The notes below the pieces were generated by a model. The model searched no databases. It saw only the letters and a list, made by a program, of their open reading frames with translations, and had not been told where the DNA came from. Below, piece after piece: positions 22,493 to 63,925 of a stretch of 64,000 nt of DNA. The position numbers and the translations under genes were made by a program. Source of the DNA: Candidatus Latescibacterota bacterium (GTDB taxonomy: Bacteria; Latescibacterota; UBA2968; GCA-2709665); contig OZ241917.1 of NCBI GenBank assembly GCA_965203805.1, positions 1,056,001 to 1,120,000 of the forward strand, written 5' to 3'. Every line of letters begins with the position of its first letter. Position 1 is the stretch's first letter.

Positions 22493-24040
22493 CTATTGCG
22501 CGCGTGCTGATTTTTCTCCGATGGTGCCGTAGAAGGCTTTGACCATCCGGTCCAGATGTACTTTCGCATTTTCCGCCGCGTCTCTGTCAATTGTGTACTC
22601 GGACTTGCCCACCAGCTTCAGACCGTGACCGTAGTCGTCGAACAGTGACTGGCAGAGCGCCTCGACCGACACGCCGTCGCGCGCGGCAGTCCCGGCAAGG
22701 GCGGACTTTGCAGCATCCGAAAACGTCAATGAAATTCCGTACGCATTCAGAAAATGCGCCGTGTACGACGATATATCCCGGTCTACCAGCAACTTTTGCA
22801 GTTCAAGCGACGGATTTTTCACAACGTCGGCGGTAACGGAAAAGGAACGGATATCGGTTGAAGGAAGCGCTTTTTCGAATTTCAGCAGCGCCCGTTCACA
22901 AACGCTCACCAGCGCTCTCGCCCCGGTCTGTTCGGTTGACGCCTGTTGCGCCAGCCGGCGCAGGGCAGCGTCTTCGAAAGTCAGTTCAATATCGTAGGCC
23001 AGGAAATCCCGCTTCTTTCCAAGAATCACCGAACTGGTGGGACTCTTCAGAATCTGATACAGATCCTCGACGGAAAGCGGTTCCAGCACGGCCACCACCG
23101 GCAGACGTCCAACAAATTCGGACTCGAAGCCGAACGAGATGAGGTCTTCGGTGATCGCCTGCTTCAGATAGGACACGCGGTCCGCTTCATGGTTCTGCGA
23201 CCGTTCCGTTTCGGCCTTGAATCCCAGACTGTTTCGATTGAGACGACTCTTGATCAGATCCTCGAATCCGTTGAACGCGCCGCTGACGATGAAGAGGATG
23301 TTTCGCGTGTTGATTTTCTTTCGCTCCATCTTGCCGCTTTGCTGATATTGCATCATGGCTTCCATCTGTGAAGCCAGATCGTGTGGCGCCTTGAGGTCCA
23401 CCTCGGTCTCTTCCATCAGTTTGAGCAGGTTGCGCTGGACGCCGCTCCGGGAGACGTCCGGACCCACCAGATTGGGGGTTGAAGCGATCTTGTCGATCTC
23501 GTCCACGTAGATGATGCCGTACTGGGCCTTCTCGATGCTGCCGCCGGCCTCCCGCACCAGTTCGCGCACCAGGTCTTCGACATCGCCGCCGACGTATCCG
23601 GTTTCACTGAACTTGGTTGCGTCGCCCTTGACAAAAGGCACGCCGATTCGATGGGCGATCAATTTGATGAGATAGGTTTTGCCCACGCCCGTCGGACCGA
23701 TCAGCAGGATGTTGTTTTTGATGTTTCCGACGGAACGGTGTTCGAATTCGGGATCTTCGCGGTCGAGCTTCATCCGGTTGAAGTGGGTGCAGATTTTGGT
23801 GGCGAGCACTTCCTTCGCCTCGTCCTGTTTGATCACGTACTCATCCAGAAAGGCCTCGAGTTCCTCCGGCTTCAGGTCGAAATCAATCGACTCATCCTGG
23901 GGTTCCGGCGTGCGCGGACCCTCACTGCTCTCCTCGGCCTCCGCCTGCGGAAACACAACCTGGGCGCCGTACTTCTGCTCGATAAGTTCCTTCAGGTCTT
24001 TCTGCAGTTCCTTGGGATCCACGGGTCGTTGTTCCGGCAT
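22493..24040 (-). CDS. ClpX-like AAA+ ATPase lacking the N-terminal zinc-binding domain
   Basis: GPTGVGKT, DATKFSETGYVGGDVE, DEIDKI, DVSRSGVQ..LLKLME, LGF loop, TGARAL. Confidence 0.85.
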   Translation of the reverse strand: MPEQRPVDPKELQKDLKELIEQKYGAQVVFPQAEAEESSEGPRTPEPQDESIDFDLKPEELEAFLDEYVIKQDEAKEVLATKICTHFNRMKLDREDPEFEHRSVGNIKNNILLIGPTGVGKTYLIKLIAHRIGVPFVKGDATKFSETGYVGGDVEDLVRELVREAGGSIEKAQYGIIYVDEIDKIASTPNLVGPDVSRSGVQRNLLKLMEETEVDLKAPHDLASQMEAMMQYQQSGKMERKKINTRNILFIVSGAFNGFEDLIKSRLNRNSLGFKAETERSQNHEADRVSYLKQAITEDLISFGFESEFVGRLPVVAVLEPLSVEDLYQILKSPTSSVILGKKRDFLAYDIELTFEDAALRRLAQQASTEQTGARALVSVCERALLKFEKALPSTDIRSFSVTADVVKNPSLELQKLLVDRDISSYTAHFLNAYGISLTFSDAAKSALAGTAARDGVSVEALCQSLFDDYGHGLKLVGKSEYTIDRDAAENAKVHLDRMVKAFYGTIGEKSARAQ

Positions 24041-57261: not shown

Positions 57262-57909
57262 TTACCGGTCCTTTGCGGCCGCCTCCCTCAGCATCTCGAC
57301 AACCTCCGTCTTGTCGCGGTACTCCGCCAGCCAGAGCGCGTTCTTCCCGTTTCTGGCGACGGCGTCGGCGTCGGCGCCCTCATCCAGCAGGCGGCCCACC
57401 ACGTCCGTGTGGCCCCCGTAGGCTGCGTAGATCAGCGGCGTCCAGCCCGAACGCGCGGAGGCATTCACGTCCGCCCCCGCGGTCAACAGGACGTGGACCA
57501 CGCCCGTCAAACCCGCGTCGGCGGCGAGCATCAAAGGCGTCCGCTGGTTCAGATCTCTGACATCCACGACGGCGCCCGCCTCCAGCAGGATCTCGGTGAT
57601 CGTGGAATCCTTCTTGATCGCCGCCTCCATCAGCGCTGTCCGCCTGTAGAGATCGTCATTGACATCGGCGCCGGCGTCGAGCAGGAGTTGAACCACCTCG
57701 GGGACGCCTTTCTTTGCGGCTTCGATCAATGGGGTCGTCCCCCCCTTGCCATCTTCGTTCGCGTCGGCGCCTTCATCAAGAAGCTCCTTTACCCCCTCTT
57801 CATCTCCCTTCCTGACCATGGCGATCAGATCCGTGTCTTCAGCGGATTTGCATGCCGAAAACACCAGAAGCGGGACCAGAACCACAAGATTCAACGCACG
57901 ACGCGCCAT
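57262..57909 (-). CDS. Ankyrin-repeat lipoprotein
   Basis: Lipobox FSAC; repeated TPL..AA..G...VV..LL..GADVN. Confidence 0.9.
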   Translation of the reverse strand: MARRALNLVVLVPLLVFSACKSAEDTDLIAMVRKGDEEGVKELLDEGADANEDGKGGTTPLIEAAKKGVPEVVQLLLDAGADVNDDLYRRTALMEAAIKKDSTITEILLEAGAVVDVRDLNQRTPLMLAADAGLTGVVHVLLTAGADVNASARSGWTPLIYAAYGGHTDVVGRLLDEGADADAVARNGKNALWLAEYRDKTEVVEMLREAAAKDR

Positions 57910-58133
57910 ACGAACACCGGTTTTCGAACCATGTTTTACGCTACAAATCCGCCTTGTGGAAAACGACCGAAACAACACGCTCCTCGCCGAGCCACTCTTC
58001 AAATGCAAATGCCATTGTACGTTCGGCATCTGGAAATCATCAGCGTCACGAACACACCGACCGCCGCTTCGTCCGGAACAACCGTTGGGCCTTCTTGCCG
58101 GATCCGTGGGCCGTCTCGGAATCGGTTTGGCGC

Positions 58134-58556
58134 CTATTCGCCGGATTTGGAGAAAACCAGCGTCAACGTCTGCGCCTGTCCGGCCACCTGCGCGGAAATC
58201 AATATGGTTATCGTATTACCCCCATCCGATACCTGGCCGGATTGGGTGCCGCCGCCGTCGGGCGTGAGCGTCAGGTTCGAACCCGATGAGACGTACCCTC
58301 CCGTCTGTGCGACCCGTACCACGTCATCTGAACCCGCAGTAACGAACGATGCCACAACCGAATACCGGTTTTCGGTCAAGGTCATGATCCCGGAAGCGTC
58401 AGGAGGCGATACTGCCGAGCCCCCGGAAGGCGTCAACCTCAAAAGATCGTAGGACCCCGCCAGCGACCCGGAAGCTACGGGGTTGTTTTCGTCGTCATCG
58501 CCCCCGCAGGCGACAAGGACACAAATCGCCAGCAGACCCAACAGGATGGGCTTCAT
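58134..58556 (-). CDS. Lipoprotein, lipocalin-like beta-barrel
   Basis: Lipobox LVAC, acidic linker, LAGSY.L, beta-rich; RBS AAGGAG. Confidence 0.7.
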   Translation of the reverse strand: MKPILLGLLAICVLVACGGDDDENNPVASGSLAGSYDLLRLTPSGGSAVSPPDASGIMTLTENRYSVVASFVTAGSDDVVRVAQTGGYVSSGSNLTLTPDGGGTQSGQVSDGGNTITILISAQVAGQAQTLTLVFSKSGE

Positions 58557-58842
58557 AAATACGTTCTCCTTCTGGATTTCCGGCGCGGCACCCACACGCG
58601 GAGGGTCTGAACACGCCGGGGCAGCGTTCAATTTCAATATAAATTGCGTACGAGTCTCCGGCAAGCGTTCTTTTGGGCCGCTGGACGTTTCGCACCTCGT
58701 CACCGCCCTCGACAGAGTGGATGTGCAGACGAATGAATTCTCATTTTAAAATTCTGTTTTTTTTGGTGTTGACATTGGAAAAAATCCGAGTTATCGTTGA
58801 CCCTTCCATAGCTATCGGAATCGGATTTATCGGGGGAAACGT

Positions 58843-59154
58843 ATGGCAACGATCACCAAGGCTTCTCTGGCGCGTTATCTTTCGGACAACATCGGCCATC
58901 CCAAAACCAAAGCCTTAGAAGCCGTCGACGTCCTGTTCGAAGCCATGACGTCCTCCATCTGCAATGGAAAGCGAATTGAGATCCGTGGTTTTGGCTCCTG
59001 GGAAGTGAAGGAAACAAAGGAAAAGACCCAGGCGCGCAATCCCAGCACCGGGGAAACGGTTTACGTGCCCGCGCGTCGCAAAGTCATGTTCAAACCCGGT
59101 AAGATTCTGAAAAAGGTGCTTTCCCAGTCCCTGGAATCCGGAGCATCGAAGTAG
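58843..59154 (+). CDS. HU/IHF family DNA-binding protein
   Basis: TITKA.L, G.RIEIRGFG.W, ARNP.TGE.V.VP......FKPGK. Confidence 0.93.
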   Translation: MATITKASLARYLSDNIGHPKTKALEAVDVLFEAMTSSICNGKRIEIRGFGSWEVKETKEKTQARNPSTGETVYVPARRKVMFKPGKILKKVLSQSLESGASK

Positions 59155-59183: not shown

Positions 59184-59990
59184 ATGCGATGGCGTGAAAA
59201 GCTGAACCGGTTTCAGACCGACGGTCCGAACAGGCTCCTGGTGGTCAGCGACTGGGACAGAACGCTGACGCGAGCCACGGCGGAGGACGGCAGAGATCAG
59301 TCTACATGTTCGGTCATTGCGAACAGCGGGCATCTCGGACCGGCCTTCGGACGTCGTTACCGGGAGTTGTTTGACCGCTATCGCGGAATCGAACGCGCGT
59401 CGGATCTACCACGGCACGAGAAGTTGCCCCACCTGCGTCAGTGGTGGACCCGCCAGTTCGATCTGCTGCTCGAATACAAACTCAACGTTCGAATCATTCA
59501 TCGGATTGTCAGCGAAAAACGGCCGCGCCTCCGAGAAGGTGCGCGCCGTTTTTTTTGTCGCCTTCACGACTGCGGCATACCCCTGATCATTCTGTCCGCG
59601 GGCATCAGGCAGATCATCGAAGCCCGGCTCGCCGCTATTGGCGTACCCACCGCAAATGTCGTCATCATCGCCAATGTACTCGACTTCGACACGAAAGGCG
59701 ATGCGGTGGCGTACCATATGCCGCTCATCCACAGCCTGAACAAGACCGGGGCCGGCGCCGAAGCGTTCCCCGGACGCCGGAATCTGCTTCTCCTGGGCGA
59801 CACGCTTGAAGATATCAACATGGCGGCGGGCATCAGCCACGAAAGCCTGCTCAGCTTCGCCTTTCCCGTCGATTTCGACCACATTGAAGACTTTCGTTCC
59901 TTATACGACGTGGTACTCACTCCGGAAGCCTCACTGGAGCCTGTGAATGCAGTCCTGAACGACATATGCGCGCCGTCTCGCCGGCATTGA
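59184..59990 (+). CDS. HAD-family pyrimidine 5'-nucleotidase (cN-III/UMPH-1-like)
   Basis: SDWDRTLT, K...L.QWW, LREG, LSAGI, IHSLNK, LLGDTLEDINM. Confidence 0.8.
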   Translation: MRWREKLNRFQTDGPNRLLVVSDWDRTLTRATAEDGRDQSTCSVIANSGHLGPAFGRRYRELFDRYRGIERASDLPRHEKLPHLRQWWTRQFDLLLEYKLNVRIIHRIVSEKRPRLREGARRFFCRLHDCGIPLIILSAGIRQIIEARLAAIGVPTANVVIIANVLDFDTKGDAVAYHMPLIHSLNKTGAGAEAFPGRRNLLLLGDTLEDINMAAGISHESLLSFAFPVDFDHIEDFRSLYDVVLTPEASLEPVNAVLNDICAPSRRH

Positions 59991-60231: not shown

Positions 60232-60266
60232 AACCGGGCGCCCCGCAAAAGGGGCGCCCGGTTTTT
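60232..60266. terminator. Intrinsic terminator, possibly bidirectional
   Basis: Perfect 13-bp stem aaccgggcgcccc/ggggcgcccggtt with T-run. Confidence 0.85.
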
Positions 60267-60292: not shown

Positions 60293-61660
60293 CTATTCCA
60301 TTCTCATCGGCATCAGAATCGCCTTCCGGTCGGGATGATCCGTGCAGACAAACAGGAGAGCCTTCAGAGGGTCGGTAAAGAAAATGTCCAGCTCTCCATC
60401 GGCCTCGAGCCCGGACACCACGTCGACAAGCAACCCGTGATTAACACCAGTCCTGAATGGGTCCGGACTTCCTTCCAGGTTTACCTGGCCGTCCACCGTG
60501 ATCGCGAACCTCCAGTACGGAACACCGGCCCAGGGGGCATCATCGTTTGAGACCGGAGAACCGGCTTTCTCTTTGGAGACATTATATCCCATGTCTCTCG
60601 ACGTGATCAGTGAAAGCGTCCCGGTTGTCTCGGCAAACTGAATTTCAACTTGCGGCATATACGTCCAGTCATCGGAAACCGGATGGCGAGGTTCCAGATG
60701 CTCTTGGATCAGATCAATTGCTCGCAGCAATTCGCCTGCAGCCAACCTGACGTGAATGCCCGACGCGTTGGGAACAACCGCTTCGTAGTTTACATAGGGC
60801 TCGTCGATAATCGGAATTTTTCGTTTCTCCTCGCCATCGATGCATAGCTCCGCCACCGTCTCGTGGATGGAAATCGTGGCGCGTTCCGCGCCTCGTTTTT
60901 CCAATACGAAACCCGGCCCCAGGAGCACCTGCGACTCCAGGTCCTCTGTGCCTTCAAGTGTGCGCAGCAACAACCTTGCGCCGTCGCCTGAGACGATGCG
61001 TCCGCCCGAATCCAGGCAGACTCCGCAGAGTTTAAGGCGGGATTCGTCGTTGCTCACTAACCGGGTCGCCCAGTGGAGGGCGCTGAGATCCTGTGCGGTA
61101 AGATCGTAGGTTTCTGCGATTCCTGTCATCTCGCTCATCTCCTTTCGGATCCGCTGCCTCGCCTTCTGCAGGCGGCTGCGGACCGTGTTCAATTCGAGGC
61201 CCAGTTGGCTGGCCGTTTCCTTGTAGGAATGGCCCCTGATATAGTGATATTCGATCACGTCCCGATGGGCTCTAGAAAGCCGGCGAATCGCCTGTCTGAT
61301 CATCATCCGAGCTTCCCGCTCCGCCTCCGAATCGTCAACTGCAAGTTCCCGCCATTCCTCGGTCAACAGACGTTCGAATCGAACCTGAACCATCCGTCGC
61401 CGGTACCACTTTCCGGCCGTGTTTTCCGCAATTGTCGAAAGCCACGGGGAAAACCGGCTTGCATCCCGAAGTTGACCCAGGCGCCGAAACGCCTGCAGGA
61501 ATACCTCCTGCGCCAGGTCTTCGGCGTCGTCCGGTTGCCTGACGATTCGGCGGATTCTCGCGAAAACCAGGCCGCCGTGGCGCTCGACGAGGCAGCCGAA
61601 CGCCCATGTCTGTCCTGAACCTGCAAGCCGGACCAGGTCCCGGTCCTCAAGTGGTTCCAA
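60293..61660 (-). CDS. ECF sigma factor fused to a C-terminal DNA polymerase III beta-clamp-like module
   Basis: Sigma2 DAEDLAQEVFL..F..WL..IA.N, sigma4 SY.E.A..L.....TVRSRL.KAR; C-terminal S.DESR..L.GV, V.GDG.RL, Y.NY..V.P, G.N...L.DV, ILMPMR. Confidence 0.85.
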   Translation of the reverse strand: MEPLEDRDLVRLAGSGQTWAFGCLVERHGGLVFARIRRIVRQPDDAEDLAQEVFLQAFRRLGQLRDASRFSPWLSTIAENTAGKWYRRRMVQVRFERLLTEEWRELAVDDSEAEREARMMIRQAIRRLSRAHRDVIEYHYIRGHSYKETASQLGLELNTVRSRLQKARQRIRKEMSEMTGIAETYDLTAQDLSALHWATRLVSNDESRLKLCGVCLDSGGRIVSGDGARLLLRTLEGTEDLESQVLLGPGFVLEKRGAERATISIHETVAELCIDGEEKRKIPIIDEPYVNYEAVVPNASGIHVRLAAGELLRAIDLIQEHLEPRHPVSDDWTYMPQVEIQFAETTGTLSLITSRDMGYNVSKEKAGSPVSNDDAPWAGVPYWRFAITVDGQVNLEGSPDPFRTGVNHGLLVDVVSGLEADGELDIFFTDPLKALLFVCTDHPDRKAILMPMRME

Positions 61661-61846
61661 ATGACGCCCCCCTGCAGGTGTGAAACATCACGCACGCGAC
61701 ATGAATACAGATACCCGGCGTGACGGAAAGTATCCTGCGGAAGAAAAAAATCCCGGCGCCACACCTGCTCGCGTTCCTCAAACAAAAAAGCCACCCGATA
61801 CGGGCGGCAGCTTGCCAGATGCATAATGAAAACGAAACGACGACCG

Positions 61847-63925
61847 TCACAACGCGACCGCGAGGCTGCTGACGGGACCCTTTACGCCGGCGCTGTTGAA
61901 AGATCGCACCCGCAGGGTGTTCAGCCCGCGGTTCAGATGCCAGTCGAAGGCCTCGGGGCACGATGTCCACGCCTCCCGGTCCATGCTGGACAGAAATCCC
62001 GAGAAACAGGGCGTCTGCGTCTCCAGGCTGACCCTCAGCAAGGCAGCGCTTCGCGTTGTCTCCACCGTGTACCGGGTCTGGTTCATCGACGGATAGAAGT
62101 CCGAACGCCGGTTCGTGTGACGCGAGAAGTGCGGCAACGGCGGCACGTTGTCATCGGCCCAGTTGAGATACCCGTCCCACGCCCAGACCTCCGTGCCCTG
62201 ACTCACCGGAAGCGGCCGCGACTGGCTGAACACGTTGCCGCGCGGAATCATCCGGAAGTGGCAGAAGGAACGGAACAGAAAGTGCGCGCCGTCGGTTGTG
62301 GAAAACTCGTGGCGGCCTTCCCGAATCCCGATCGGCAGGTCGCGAACCAGGGTTTCCAGGTCCTGCCGGAACAGATACGGACGATCCCAGCGTTCGACGT
62401 CCTCGAGCCTGTCCACGAGGACCCGGTGCACCTCGAGCGTATCCAGCGGCACACGCGTTTCCGGATCGTACCAGTAGAAATCCCGCGTGGCGTCAAGATG
62501 GACCCACTTGCCATAATCGTTCGACCAGACCTCCGCAATCTCGTGTCCGGTCATGCCTTCGCTGTGAAAGTTCACATGACGCGCCGGGAAGCCGAAGCTC
62601 AGACACGCGACCACGAGCGCCACGTTCGGATACAGGCACATCTTGTCGCGCCGCCGTTCCCTGTACCGATTCATCACAATCGCGCCCGATTCGTCCCGCT
62701 CGAGCACCAGCCAGTCCAGGACGTTCCAGGGATAGTGCCGGCACGCGCCCAGCGGAACGGCATACGCCCACGCCATCAGACGCTCGATGGCCTCGAATTC
62801 CGTCTGTGCCCCGGCGACAACGGCATCCAGTTCGAACCGTTCGCGCAGTTCGCGCAAGGTGGCGTGGTTGTAGTCTTCGTCCGCGGTCCAGTAAGAAGAC
62901 CGCCGGATGGCCGCGTTCTCGGCGCGGACGACCCGGGGCGGCGCATCTCCTTCCGGGCGCACGTCGGCCATGACACGCATCGCCTTCAGGACGGGCGTAC
63001 GGGCAGCGTGGGACGTCTGTAACCGCATCCGCCACTGAAGGTAACGTCCCTGCAGGCGCGTTACCCTTGACCCGGGGTCACACGACTGCCATTCGCTCCA
63101 GCCCGCCCCGTTCACAACCGGGCCGGCCCCTGTGCGTACCTCACAGCCGACAGCAGTTCCGCCGGGGACGTCCGCGTCCCAATCCAAACGCAACTCACGA
63201 ATGGATTGGCGCCGTTTCACGCCTTCGCGTTCGCCCGCGGCATCGATGACCGGCGACACGACAACCCCTTCGTCGCGGTACCCGTCCACGATCAGCCGGA
63301 TCACGTATTCGCCGCGTTCGGGCTCCCAATCGCCGTTTCGACGCGTACGACTCGACGCGGGCAGCACGACCGGGTCCGCCGATCCCTTATCAAAGTCCCG
63401 GTAATCCGCCACCATCAGGCTCCATCCCACCCTCCCGCCGGCCACGTCGACAACCAGATGGTTGTCGCCCTGCCGCAGACATCCCGGCGGAAGTTCCAAG
63501 TAATACCACCGGCTCCAGCTCCACGCGCCTTCATCGGGCGCCAACTCCCAGTACTGCCGGGCGTCGGGGGTCGCCAGCGGGGACGGCGGCCGCAGCGCCT
63601 CCCGTCCGTTGACGTTGAATCGCAATGTGGCCGAATGGCCCCGCCGCTCCCTTGCGATAAAAGCGACCTGTGCCTTCCCGGGAGGACGCTGCGCCAACGT
63701 CAGTGTCTTCTTCAGCGCCACGCGGCCGGATAATGCCAGGAACGGATCCTCGTCCAGGTCGTCCGACCTTCCGGCGCCGGGGCTGTCGTTCTCCGCCACC
63801 GAACCTCTGAAAAGGCGGATCCCGTCTTCTTCGTCCCCCATCCAGAGATCCGTAACGTCCGAGGCGCCGTAGATCTCTCGCGCGGGAAAGCGGGTCTCGA
63901 TCCGCTTGTATCCCTCGTCAGCCAT
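61847..63925 (-). CDS. Transglutaminase-like domain protein
   Basis: MC......V..C.S.G.PAR.......GHE..EVWSN.Y.KWV.LD Cys-His-Asp arrangement. Confidence 0.7.
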   Translation of the reverse strand: MADEGYKRIETRFPAREIYGASDVTDLWMGDEEDGIRLFRGSVAENDSPGAGRSDDLDEDPFLALSGRVALKKTLTLAQRPPGKAQVAFIARERRGHSATLRFNVNGREALRPPSPLATPDARQYWELAPDEGAWSWSRWYYLELPPGCLRQGDNHLVVDVAGGRVGWSLMVADYRDFDKGSADPVVLPASSRTRRNGDWEPERGEYVIRLIVDGYRDEGVVVSPVIDAAGEREGVKRRQSIRELRLDWDADVPGGTAVGCEVRTGAGPVVNGAGWSEWQSCDPGSRVTRLQGRYLQWRMRLQTSHAARTPVLKAMRVMADVRPEGDAPPRVVRAENAAIRRSSYWTADEDYNHATLRELRERFELDAVVAGAQTEFEAIERLMAWAYAVPLGACRHYPWNVLDWLVLERDESGAIVMNRYRERRRDKMCLYPNVALVVACLSFGFPARHVNFHSEGMTGHEIAEVWSNDYGKWVHLDATRDFYWYDPETRVPLDTLEVHRVLVDRLEDVERWDRPYLFRQDLETLVRDLPIGIREGRHEFSTTDGAHFLFRSFCHFRMIPRGNVFSQSRPLPVSQGTEVWAWDGYLNWADDNVPPLPHFSRHTNRRSDFYPSMNQTRYTVETTRSAALLRVSLETQTPCFSGFLSSMDREAWTSCPEAFDWHLNRGLNTLRVRSFNSAGVKGPVSSLAVAL

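Follow-up and report, generated by a model that had tools for sequence, protein, structure and literature searches.

Several groups of extracytoplasmic function (ECF) sigma factors carry a fused C-terminal extension: in ECF41 (SigJ/SnoaL), ECF42 (TPR) and ECF238 (CorE), the sigma2–sigma4 core continues into an extension longer than 50 amino acids (aa), and no anti-sigma gene lies adjacent. In ECF41, the SnoaL-type extension inhibits the sigma factor through contact with a conserved, group-specific motif of the sigma2–sigma4 linker, which blocks binding to core polymerase (available parts of PMC8999054 and PMC7826278). A second kind of precedent comes from phages, in which a transcription factor or sigma-family protein is tied to the pocket of a sliding clamp through a clamp-binding motif (CBM): the clamp-binding motifs of T4 gp55 and gp33 bind the hydrophobic patch of gp45, a homotrimer (available text of PMC7892883), and Mu MuC needs its own CBMs and the E. 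coli beta clamp for late transcription (available text of PMC12867686). In both phages the motif belongs to a terminal tail, and the clamp that it binds is a ring of its own, loaded on DNA. Here we analyse a gene for an ECF sigma factor fused to a clamp-like module, found in a stretch of 64,000 nucleotides (nt; hereafter the window) from Candidatus Latescibacterota bacterium (positions 1,056,001 to 1,120,000 of contig OZ241917.1, assembly GCA_965203805.1).

The fusion protein resembles the extension-bearing ECFs in its domain order, in the lack of an adjacent anti-sigma gene and, as in ECF41, in a conserved linker motif particular to its group. It differs from ECF41, ECF42 and ECF238 in that its extension is a homologue of beta-clamp domains II–III rather than a SnoaL, TPR or Cys-rich region, and in that its linker motif resembles a CBM. 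It is not a member of ECF41, because the fold of the extension is that of a clamp and not SnoaL-like; by analogy, it would at most work like one. Unlike the T4 and Mu systems, it has receptor and motif in one polypeptide, in a cellular genome, with a beta-type clamp part that probably does not form a ring and with the motif in the linker. To our knowledge, links between sliding clamps and transcription have so far come only from these two phages. ECFs with fused extensions are known; we found no earlier report of an extension derived from a replication clamp, and no prior description of the sigma–clamp fusion turned up among the papers listed by literature searches on sigma factors with clamp-like domains, CBMs and Latescibacter. 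Neither the main text of the ECF classification (PMC7826278) nor the searchable part of its supplement uses the terms 'clamp', 'DNA_pol3' or 'PF02768', and the sole mention of 'polymerase III' in that part of the supplement refers to the genetic context of ECF30, not to a fused domain. The main text of PMC7671368 likewise does not use 'clamp', 'DNA_pol3', 'polymerase III' or 'DnaN'.

A complete ECF sigma factor fused to DnaN domains II and III

Residues 1–178 of the 455-aa protein (full-length orthologues are 453–455 aa long; coordinates in Table 1) are a complete ECF sigma factor. Both Pfam domains score well above their cutoffs (Sigma70_r2, PF04542, 54.1 bits versus 24; Sigma70_r4_2, PF08281, 48 bits versus 25.7), as does NCBIfam TIGR02937 (94.6 bits versus 42.9); about 29 residues separate the two domains, and the Pfam scan gave no match to Sigma70_r3 or region 1.1 at E ≤ 10. 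An earlier note on this DNA, made from the letters alone, had placed a complete ECF sigma at the N terminus of this open reading frame, which these family matches confirm, and had listed five DnaN motifs after it, all of which are found in the translation in the order given. Several 278-aa database entries (P0009, P0022 and P0029) would begin at the invariant M178, immediately ahead of the module (M175 to M178, 61127–61138, minus strand); they may be gene-call artefacts or, going by the sequence, may hint at an internal start that gives the free module.

The C-terminal 275 aa on their own gave marginal matches (Pfam DNA_pol3_beta_3, PF02768, E 0.14, 12.4 bits versus a cutoff of 27; beta clamp 8xla in the PDB, E 0.021) and did not reach the Pfam gathering scores for DNA_pol3_beta_2 or DNA_pol3_beta_3. 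A profile built from 11 orthologues (the window and ten genome loci) matched at least 34 distinct beta-clamp sequences in the PDB at E ≤ 0.011 (best, 1.7e-9). The match is in register: profile positions 11–139 correspond to clamp positions of about 134–270, and positions 212–274 to the clamp C terminus. Structure prediction agreed. A first AlphaFold model, from a shallow alignment of close orthologues, had a predicted local distance difference test (pLDDT) score below 50 at residues 174–270 and was superseded by a second, from an alignment of 41 diverse fusions, with a mean pLDDT of 84.8 and most of the module above 90. The top Foldseek matches of the second model were all beta clamps (E 1.8e-14), which is the outcome of the fold check that the earlier note had proposed, and VIA-align superposed its residues 180–455 on residues 122/123–366 of E. 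coli beta (Z 24.1, root-mean-square deviation 2.6 Å over 233 residues). No match to domain I (PF00712) was found in Pfam scans of the whole protein or of the module. The module is a homologue of DnaN domains II–III with domain I absent, as the note had read it. Further searches with the module returned only a phage processivity factor family in PHROGs (E 5.9e-10), no match in the PADLOC defence-system scan and, in the ESM Atlas, a best score of 0.86, which lies below the 0.9 mark and is a lead only.

The source genome encodes a separate canonical dnaN adjoining recF, and a single copy of the sigma fusion. By domain content the fusion protein is an ECF sigma and not a DnaN: it lacks domain I and the channel features, and its clamp matches in Pfam are sub-threshold.

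The module retains a peptide-binding pocket

Like DnaN, the module has domains II and III in fold and register, a CBM pocket and a C-terminal MPxR strand. We aligned 39 modules of the fusion family with E. coli DnaN, the DnaN of the source genome and 65 other DnaNs, and followed the pocket residues of the beta clamp as listed in the available text of PMC11139829. In E. coli beta numbering, R152 is kept in 32 of the 39 modules, L155 in 31, G174 in 36, R176 in 30, L177 in 31, V247 in 32, N320 in 36, M362 in 33, P363 in 37 and R365 in 27, and position 323 is Y or F in 32; most residues of CBM subsites I and II are retained in 26–37 members. Those on the surface (R152, R176, N320, M362 and R365) are kept even in members only 25–43% identical to the query. 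Across the diverse alignment, pocket positions were more conserved than the other positions of the module (0.66 versus 0.44), a value that none of 20000 permutations reached. The alignment indicates that the hydrophobic CBM pocket between domains II and III is retained.

The linker carries a peptide of the kind that such pockets bind

In the window, the sigma2–sigma4 linker follows the basic end of region 2 and reads RRRMVQVRFE. Within the motif, the 38 close orthologues vary only at position 93 (V or I); V91, Q92, R94, F95 and E96 are the same in all of them. In an alignment of 41 diverse fusions Q92 occurs in 39, an aliphatic residue at 93 in 34 and F, L, W, M or Y at 95 in 39. Residues 91–96 are the best-conserved part of the linker, both in the close clade (0.97 versus 0.77) and in the diverse set (0.58 versus 0.37). 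Scanned with a regular expression, 29 of 34 fusions have the core motif. Of the five without a match, three had been anchored wrongly: the 41-fusion alignment has QLQL, QLSY and QLTL there. Six of the 34 carry a full canonical pentameric or hexameric CBM at this place (QLRLF, QMELF, QLHLPF, QLGLPL, QLKLF and QAQLRL); the consensus of such motifs is QLxLF or Q-phi-x-[L/M]-x-[F/L] (available text of PMC11139829). The equivalent stretch of the other ECF sigmas of the source genome contained the motif in 0 of 15, and the motif is, as far as these comparisons reach, specific to the fusion family. Judged from the alignments, a clamp pocket and a peptide such as it would bind occur together in the fusion polypeptide. 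A second candidate CBM, 'QLGLEL' in region 4.2, was rejected: it occupies an ordinary helix-turn-helix position, and its Q is not conserved across the diverse family.

The module departs from a ring-forming clamp

Compared with DnaN, the module is without domain I and one channel helix, its channel charge is reduced and its dimer edge is rebuilt with two insertions. Where domain II of DnaN has its second helix, the segment is shorter (15.1 aa in the fusion family versus 18.3 aa in DnaN), and the second AlphaFold model has no helix within residues 235–260. Positive charge is lost in two of the four channel-lining segments (net −1.18 versus +0.94 and −0.87 versus +0.79 in DnaN); the second of these values belongs to helix A of domain III, and the domain II second-helix segment is acidic. 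The equivalents of the DnaN interface residues I272 and L273 are E/P and H/F/Y, in a region where the alignment is uncertain; in the window protein, where this part aligns poorly, they are E320 and H321, flanked by insertions. The two conserved insertions at the domain III interface edge are an 'EPRHP..W.Y.P' element (median 18 aa in the family versus 9 aa in DnaN) and an aromatic-rich 'MGY...PYWRF' loop (median 35 aa versus 15 aa; pLDDT 67–84 in the model). A DNA-encircling ring is unlikely, judging from alignment and model, because domain I and the channel helix are missing, the channel charge is lost and the insertions lie at the DnaN dimer edge. A complex prediction for three copies of residues 181–455 scored 0.06 and 0.00 against a mark of 0.42; run without controls, it counts neither for nor against a ring.

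A proposed model of intramolecular control and its alternatives

We propose that the pseudo-clamp extension captures the linker motif in cis and thereby governs whether sigma2 and sigma4 can reach core polymerase, with competition for the pocket as the switch, a reading drawn from sequence and from analogy to which we assign a probability of about 0.5. The extension would be a monomeric pseudo-clamp that has lost its ring-forming and DNA-channel features and kept the CBM pocket. The linker, which must enter RNA polymerase when the holoenzyme forms, bears the CBM-like peptide Q92-V-R-F95; with this peptide gripped in cis, sigma2 and sigma4 would be kept under control, probably in an inactive conformation. 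Switching would come from competitors for the pocket, either CBM-bearing replication and repair proteins or pocket-binding small molecules, and the fusion gene appears to drive its own GGATAC-type promoter. What the analysis shows is the fusion, its fold, the kept pocket, the family-specific linker motif, the lost clamp-ring features and the conserved promoter element; that the linker docks in the pocket, which way regulation runs, and what signal and regulon are involved we infer, with inhibition through a linker contact in ECF41 as the precedent for action in cis. The suggestion in the earlier note that a clamp mimic serves as a sensor or regulatory extension fits the kept pocket and is strengthened by the linker peptide; the ligand that it would sense is conjecture.

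Several observations weigh against this proposal. The full-length AlphaFold model has residues 67–104 as one long helix and offers no structural evidence of docking, at a block pLDDT of 54 for residues 91–100 and below 50 at residues 97–117, with a predicted template modelling score (pTM) of 0.59. The motif could be conserved instead for contact with RNA polymerase, and the window's own QVRFE falls short of a canonical CBM, having no F/L at its end. The pocket of the window's clade also differs from that of E. coli beta (T172 to G, H175 to A, P242 to V and Y323 to L, and also at R246), some pocket residues are fold-determining as well, which inflates the apparent conservation, and co-variation between position 4 of the motif and the H175 equivalent was not significant (5 of 6 versus 2 of 14, Fisher p 0.084, uncorrected for phylogeny).

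A clamp pocket and a matching CBM-like peptide in one sigma factor suggest an undescribed way of switching sigma factors. The fusion family offers a simple, testable model of intramolecular sigma control and a possible route from replication stress or clamp-pocket stress to transcription; its natural peptide–pocket pair could be turned into a sensor for ligands of the clamp pocket, and its sequences suggest that clamp domains II–III can persist as an independent peptide-binding module. In a more specific form, which we hold only tentatively and consider somewhat unlikely, the protein would be a transcriptional switch built from a replication clamp: the pseudo-clamp would hold the CBM of the sigma factor itself until free clamp-binding proteins or clamp-targeting natural products of the griselimycin type compete for the pocket, or until the motif passes to DnaN loaded on DNA. 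Transcription would thus report on the clamp-interaction network of the cell, in a cellular counterpart of the clamp-coupled transcription of T4 and Mu, with a sensor built from a mimic of its target.

The best-surviving alternative, which we regard as unlikely, is a sigma factor coupled to replication, whose linker CBM binds DNA-loaded DnaN left behind by replication or repair, so that the sigma is recruited or activated there while the pseudo-clamp masks the motif in cis or competes with DnaN. The canonical CBMs of divergent members, the T4 and Mu precedents and the presence in the source genome of a normal DnaN, which ends in the pocket strand LLMPLR, all speak for it. Taken alone, however, it leaves the fused and conserved pocket-bearing pseudo-clamp unexplained, and it would place the CBM in a linker that is buried in RNA polymerase at initiation, whereas the motifs of gp55 and MuC lie on free tails.

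An adaptor that acts in trans without autoinhibition is decidedly less probable; here the pocket would recruit, or be titrated by, CBM-bearing proteins (polymerases, Hda or MutS/L-like proteins), the linker motif being conserved for other reasons. This corresponds to the detector of 'clamp-binding proteins, toxins or antibiotics' of the earlier note. Retention of the pocket favours it, and the solved beta clamps that the model matches include, by their titles, griselimycin, mycoplanecin and peptide complexes at the pocket. It does not account for a linker CBM found in this family and in none of the 15 other ECF sigmas, and there is no conserved partner gene nearby, only PhyH dioxygenases recurring outside the window's taxonomic family.

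We think it very unlikely that the clamp-derived domain is only a structural or stabilizing scaffold, with pocket conservation reflecting a constraint on the fold and the linker motif contacting RNA polymerase. The pocket residues G174, P363 and L177 are also core residues, and in the close clade the enrichment of conservation in the pocket is weak (0.86 versus 0.78, permutation p 0.076), both as such a scaffold would have it. Against it stand the surface pocket residues kept at low identity, the textbook CBMs at the same linker position in six members and the vertical conservation of a single copy in four families of one class, which argues for a specific function.

PCNA and the homotrimeric T4 gp45 form trimeric rings from two-domain subunits. 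That three of the two-domain modules, each half of which is clamp-like in fold, likewise form a six-domain ring round DNA and so a sliding sigma factor, as the earlier note had also offered, is the most improbable reading, disfavoured by the deleted channel helix, the lost charge and the rebuilt dimer edge.

Distribution and other architectures

The fusion is not a one-off, the case in which the earlier note would have been refuted. A word-indexed search returned 42 clusters, nearly all of 453–455 aa, with modules 63–86% identical to that of the window; the outlier is an internally deleted 394-aa relative at 47% identity. Clusters with a source name are labelled Gemmatimonadota, and the genome loci Candidatus Latescibacterota or Gemmatimonadota. 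In a survey of the phylum, 65 of 168 genomes had exactly one match each (E ≤ 1e-15), in open frames of 370–510 aa. Counted by taxonomic family, f1 to f4 have it in 17 of 21, 15 of 31, 2 of 3 and 30 of 76 genomes, and the ten remaining families in none of 36; all 14 other genomes of the window's genus carry the fusion. One same-family orthologue (G059:C228:986-1834, minus strand) has an in-frame TAG inside the module match.

An exhaustive profile search gave 1627 matches at E ≤ 1e-3 and 71 at E ≤ 1e-10, with diverse non-DnaN proteins ranked first and ordinary DnaNs of about 365 aa appearing from about E 1e-12. A Pfam scan of 50 divergent representatives found sigma region 2, region 4 or both ahead of the module in 32 and no sigma domain in 14; the rest were two three-domain DnaNs, one protein with a match to the central domain only and one unrelated protein. 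One of the divergent fusions, P0090, is labelled Lentisphaerae. A subfamily ending in TMPMA appeared to stand alone, but its three close metagenome relatives are all in-frame sigma fusions, and the stand-alone calls are probably gene-call artefacts. Two proteins look, from their sequences, like real alternative architectures: P0072 has a Zn ribbon in place of the sigma, followed by 'QVQL' N-terminal to the module, and P0080 has the pseudo-clamp module without a sigma and with a C-terminal SEC-C motif.

Promoter, paralogues and genomic context

Upstream of the gene, the block GGATACTTTCCG-N9-G.ATCT(G/T)TAT is conserved in all ten close loci. Of 11 divergent loci, 8 also have GGATAC ahead of the fusion gene and a further one has GAGATAC; an A(T/A)CT(G/A/T)T element, read by eye, follows after about 17–18 nt in six loci (the window and five divergent ones). 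From this conservation, the element (GGATAC-N17-AWCTDT) looks like an autoregulated ECF promoter and gives indirect evidence that the fusion protein would direct promoter-specific initiation; we take it to resemble promoters of the GGAAC/TCTGA type. The strict motif of the gene's own promoter occurs once in the source genome and looser forms give 2–20 scattered matches; the pattern GGATAC-N16-18-AWCTDT has 10 matches in the genome versus 2 in the reversed sequence. No coherent regulon emerged from these matches in the source genome: besides the gene's own promoter, the intergenic ones lie near an open reading frame of 1208 aa, a repeat region with small open reading frames and other unrelated genes. 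One promoter-like site (G000:C1:865803-865831, minus strand) precedes a region of short repeats whose small open reading frames look, by eye, AbrB-like and GxxExxY-like. Another, in the window at 23058–23084 (minus strand), has TTTCCGTC and ATCTGTA in common with the sigma promoter, at a different spacing.

Table 1 Features of the sigma–clamp fusion gene and its flanks (positions in the window)
Feature	Residues	Position	Strand	Basis or remark
Whole coding sequence, ECF sigma fused to pseudo-clamp		60293..61660	−	455 aa plus stop codon; TTG start
Sigma region 2	24–89	61394..61591	−	Pfam PF04542 Sigma70_r2, E 1.4e-14
Linker motif V91-Q92-V93-R94-F95-E96, CBM-like	91–96	61373..61390	−	Directly after the RRR that ends region 2
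Sigma region 4	119–171	61148..61306	−	Pfam PF08281 Sigma70_r4_2, E 1e-12
Clamp domain II-like half, without second channel helix	181–300	60761..61120	−	Profile, model, superposition
Clamp domain III-like half	301–455	60296..60760	−	Profile, model, superposition
Family-specific 'EPRHP..W.Y.P' insertion at the end of the DnaN dimer-interface helix	320–336	60653..60703	−	Joint alignment
Family-specific aromatic-rich loop 'MGY...PYWRF'	355–385	60506..60598	−	Joint alignment, model
C-terminal pocket strand I-L-M-P-M-R	448–453	60302..60319	−	Equivalent to E. coli beta V360–R365
Promoter-like element GGATAC-N17-ATCTGT		61707..61735	−	47 nt upstream of start
Hairpin and T-run ending the upstream 692-aa gene, separating it from the sigma gene		61781..61810	−	Read from sequence
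GC-rich hairpin, T-run on the plus-strand side		60235..60260		33 nt after the sigma stop codon; read from sequence

The source genome has 17 ECF-type open reading frames, and each of the nine long ones scanned carries a C-terminal extension. Six of these extensions were recognized: ankyrin repeats (in a reading frame of 759 aa), HEAT plus DUF2087 (685 aa), GNAT (604 aa), TPR (490 aa), a DUF1080-like 3-keto-disaccharide hydrolase (400 aa) and WG repeats (381 aa); three were not. Because all nine carry one, fused regulatory extensions would fit a habit of one-component ECF regulation in the source organism. The C terminus of the closest paralogous ECF sigma (449 aa) bears no relation to the module. 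Pfam found no anti-sigma domain in the genes flanking the fusion, in keeping with the absence of an adjacent anti-sigma gene in the earlier note.

The hairpin downstream of the sigma gene may, from its sequence, be a bidirectional terminator. Synteny of the neighbourhood is confined to the window's taxonomic family; elsewhere the PhyH dioxygenases are the sole shared gene family, which we judged uninformative. Convergent with the sigma gene, and kept in that family, is a gene for a UMPH-1-type pyrimidine 5'-nucleotidase (59184–59990, plus strand; PF05822, E 1.8e-43); the UMPH-1 family is mostly eukaryotic. The 692-aa protein (61847–63925, minus strand) is encoded in all ten related loci at 77–91% identity, directly upstream of the sigma gene in nine of them, and its sole Pfam match is a sub-threshold one to a transglutaminase core (E 7e-4). 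The window also has a gene for an ankyrin-repeat protein (57262–58029, minus strand), which starts with a hydrophobic leader like that of a lipoprotein; the neighbours of this gene encode a small conserved protein without a family match (58134–58703, minus strand) and a member of the HU/IHF family (58843–59154, plus strand).

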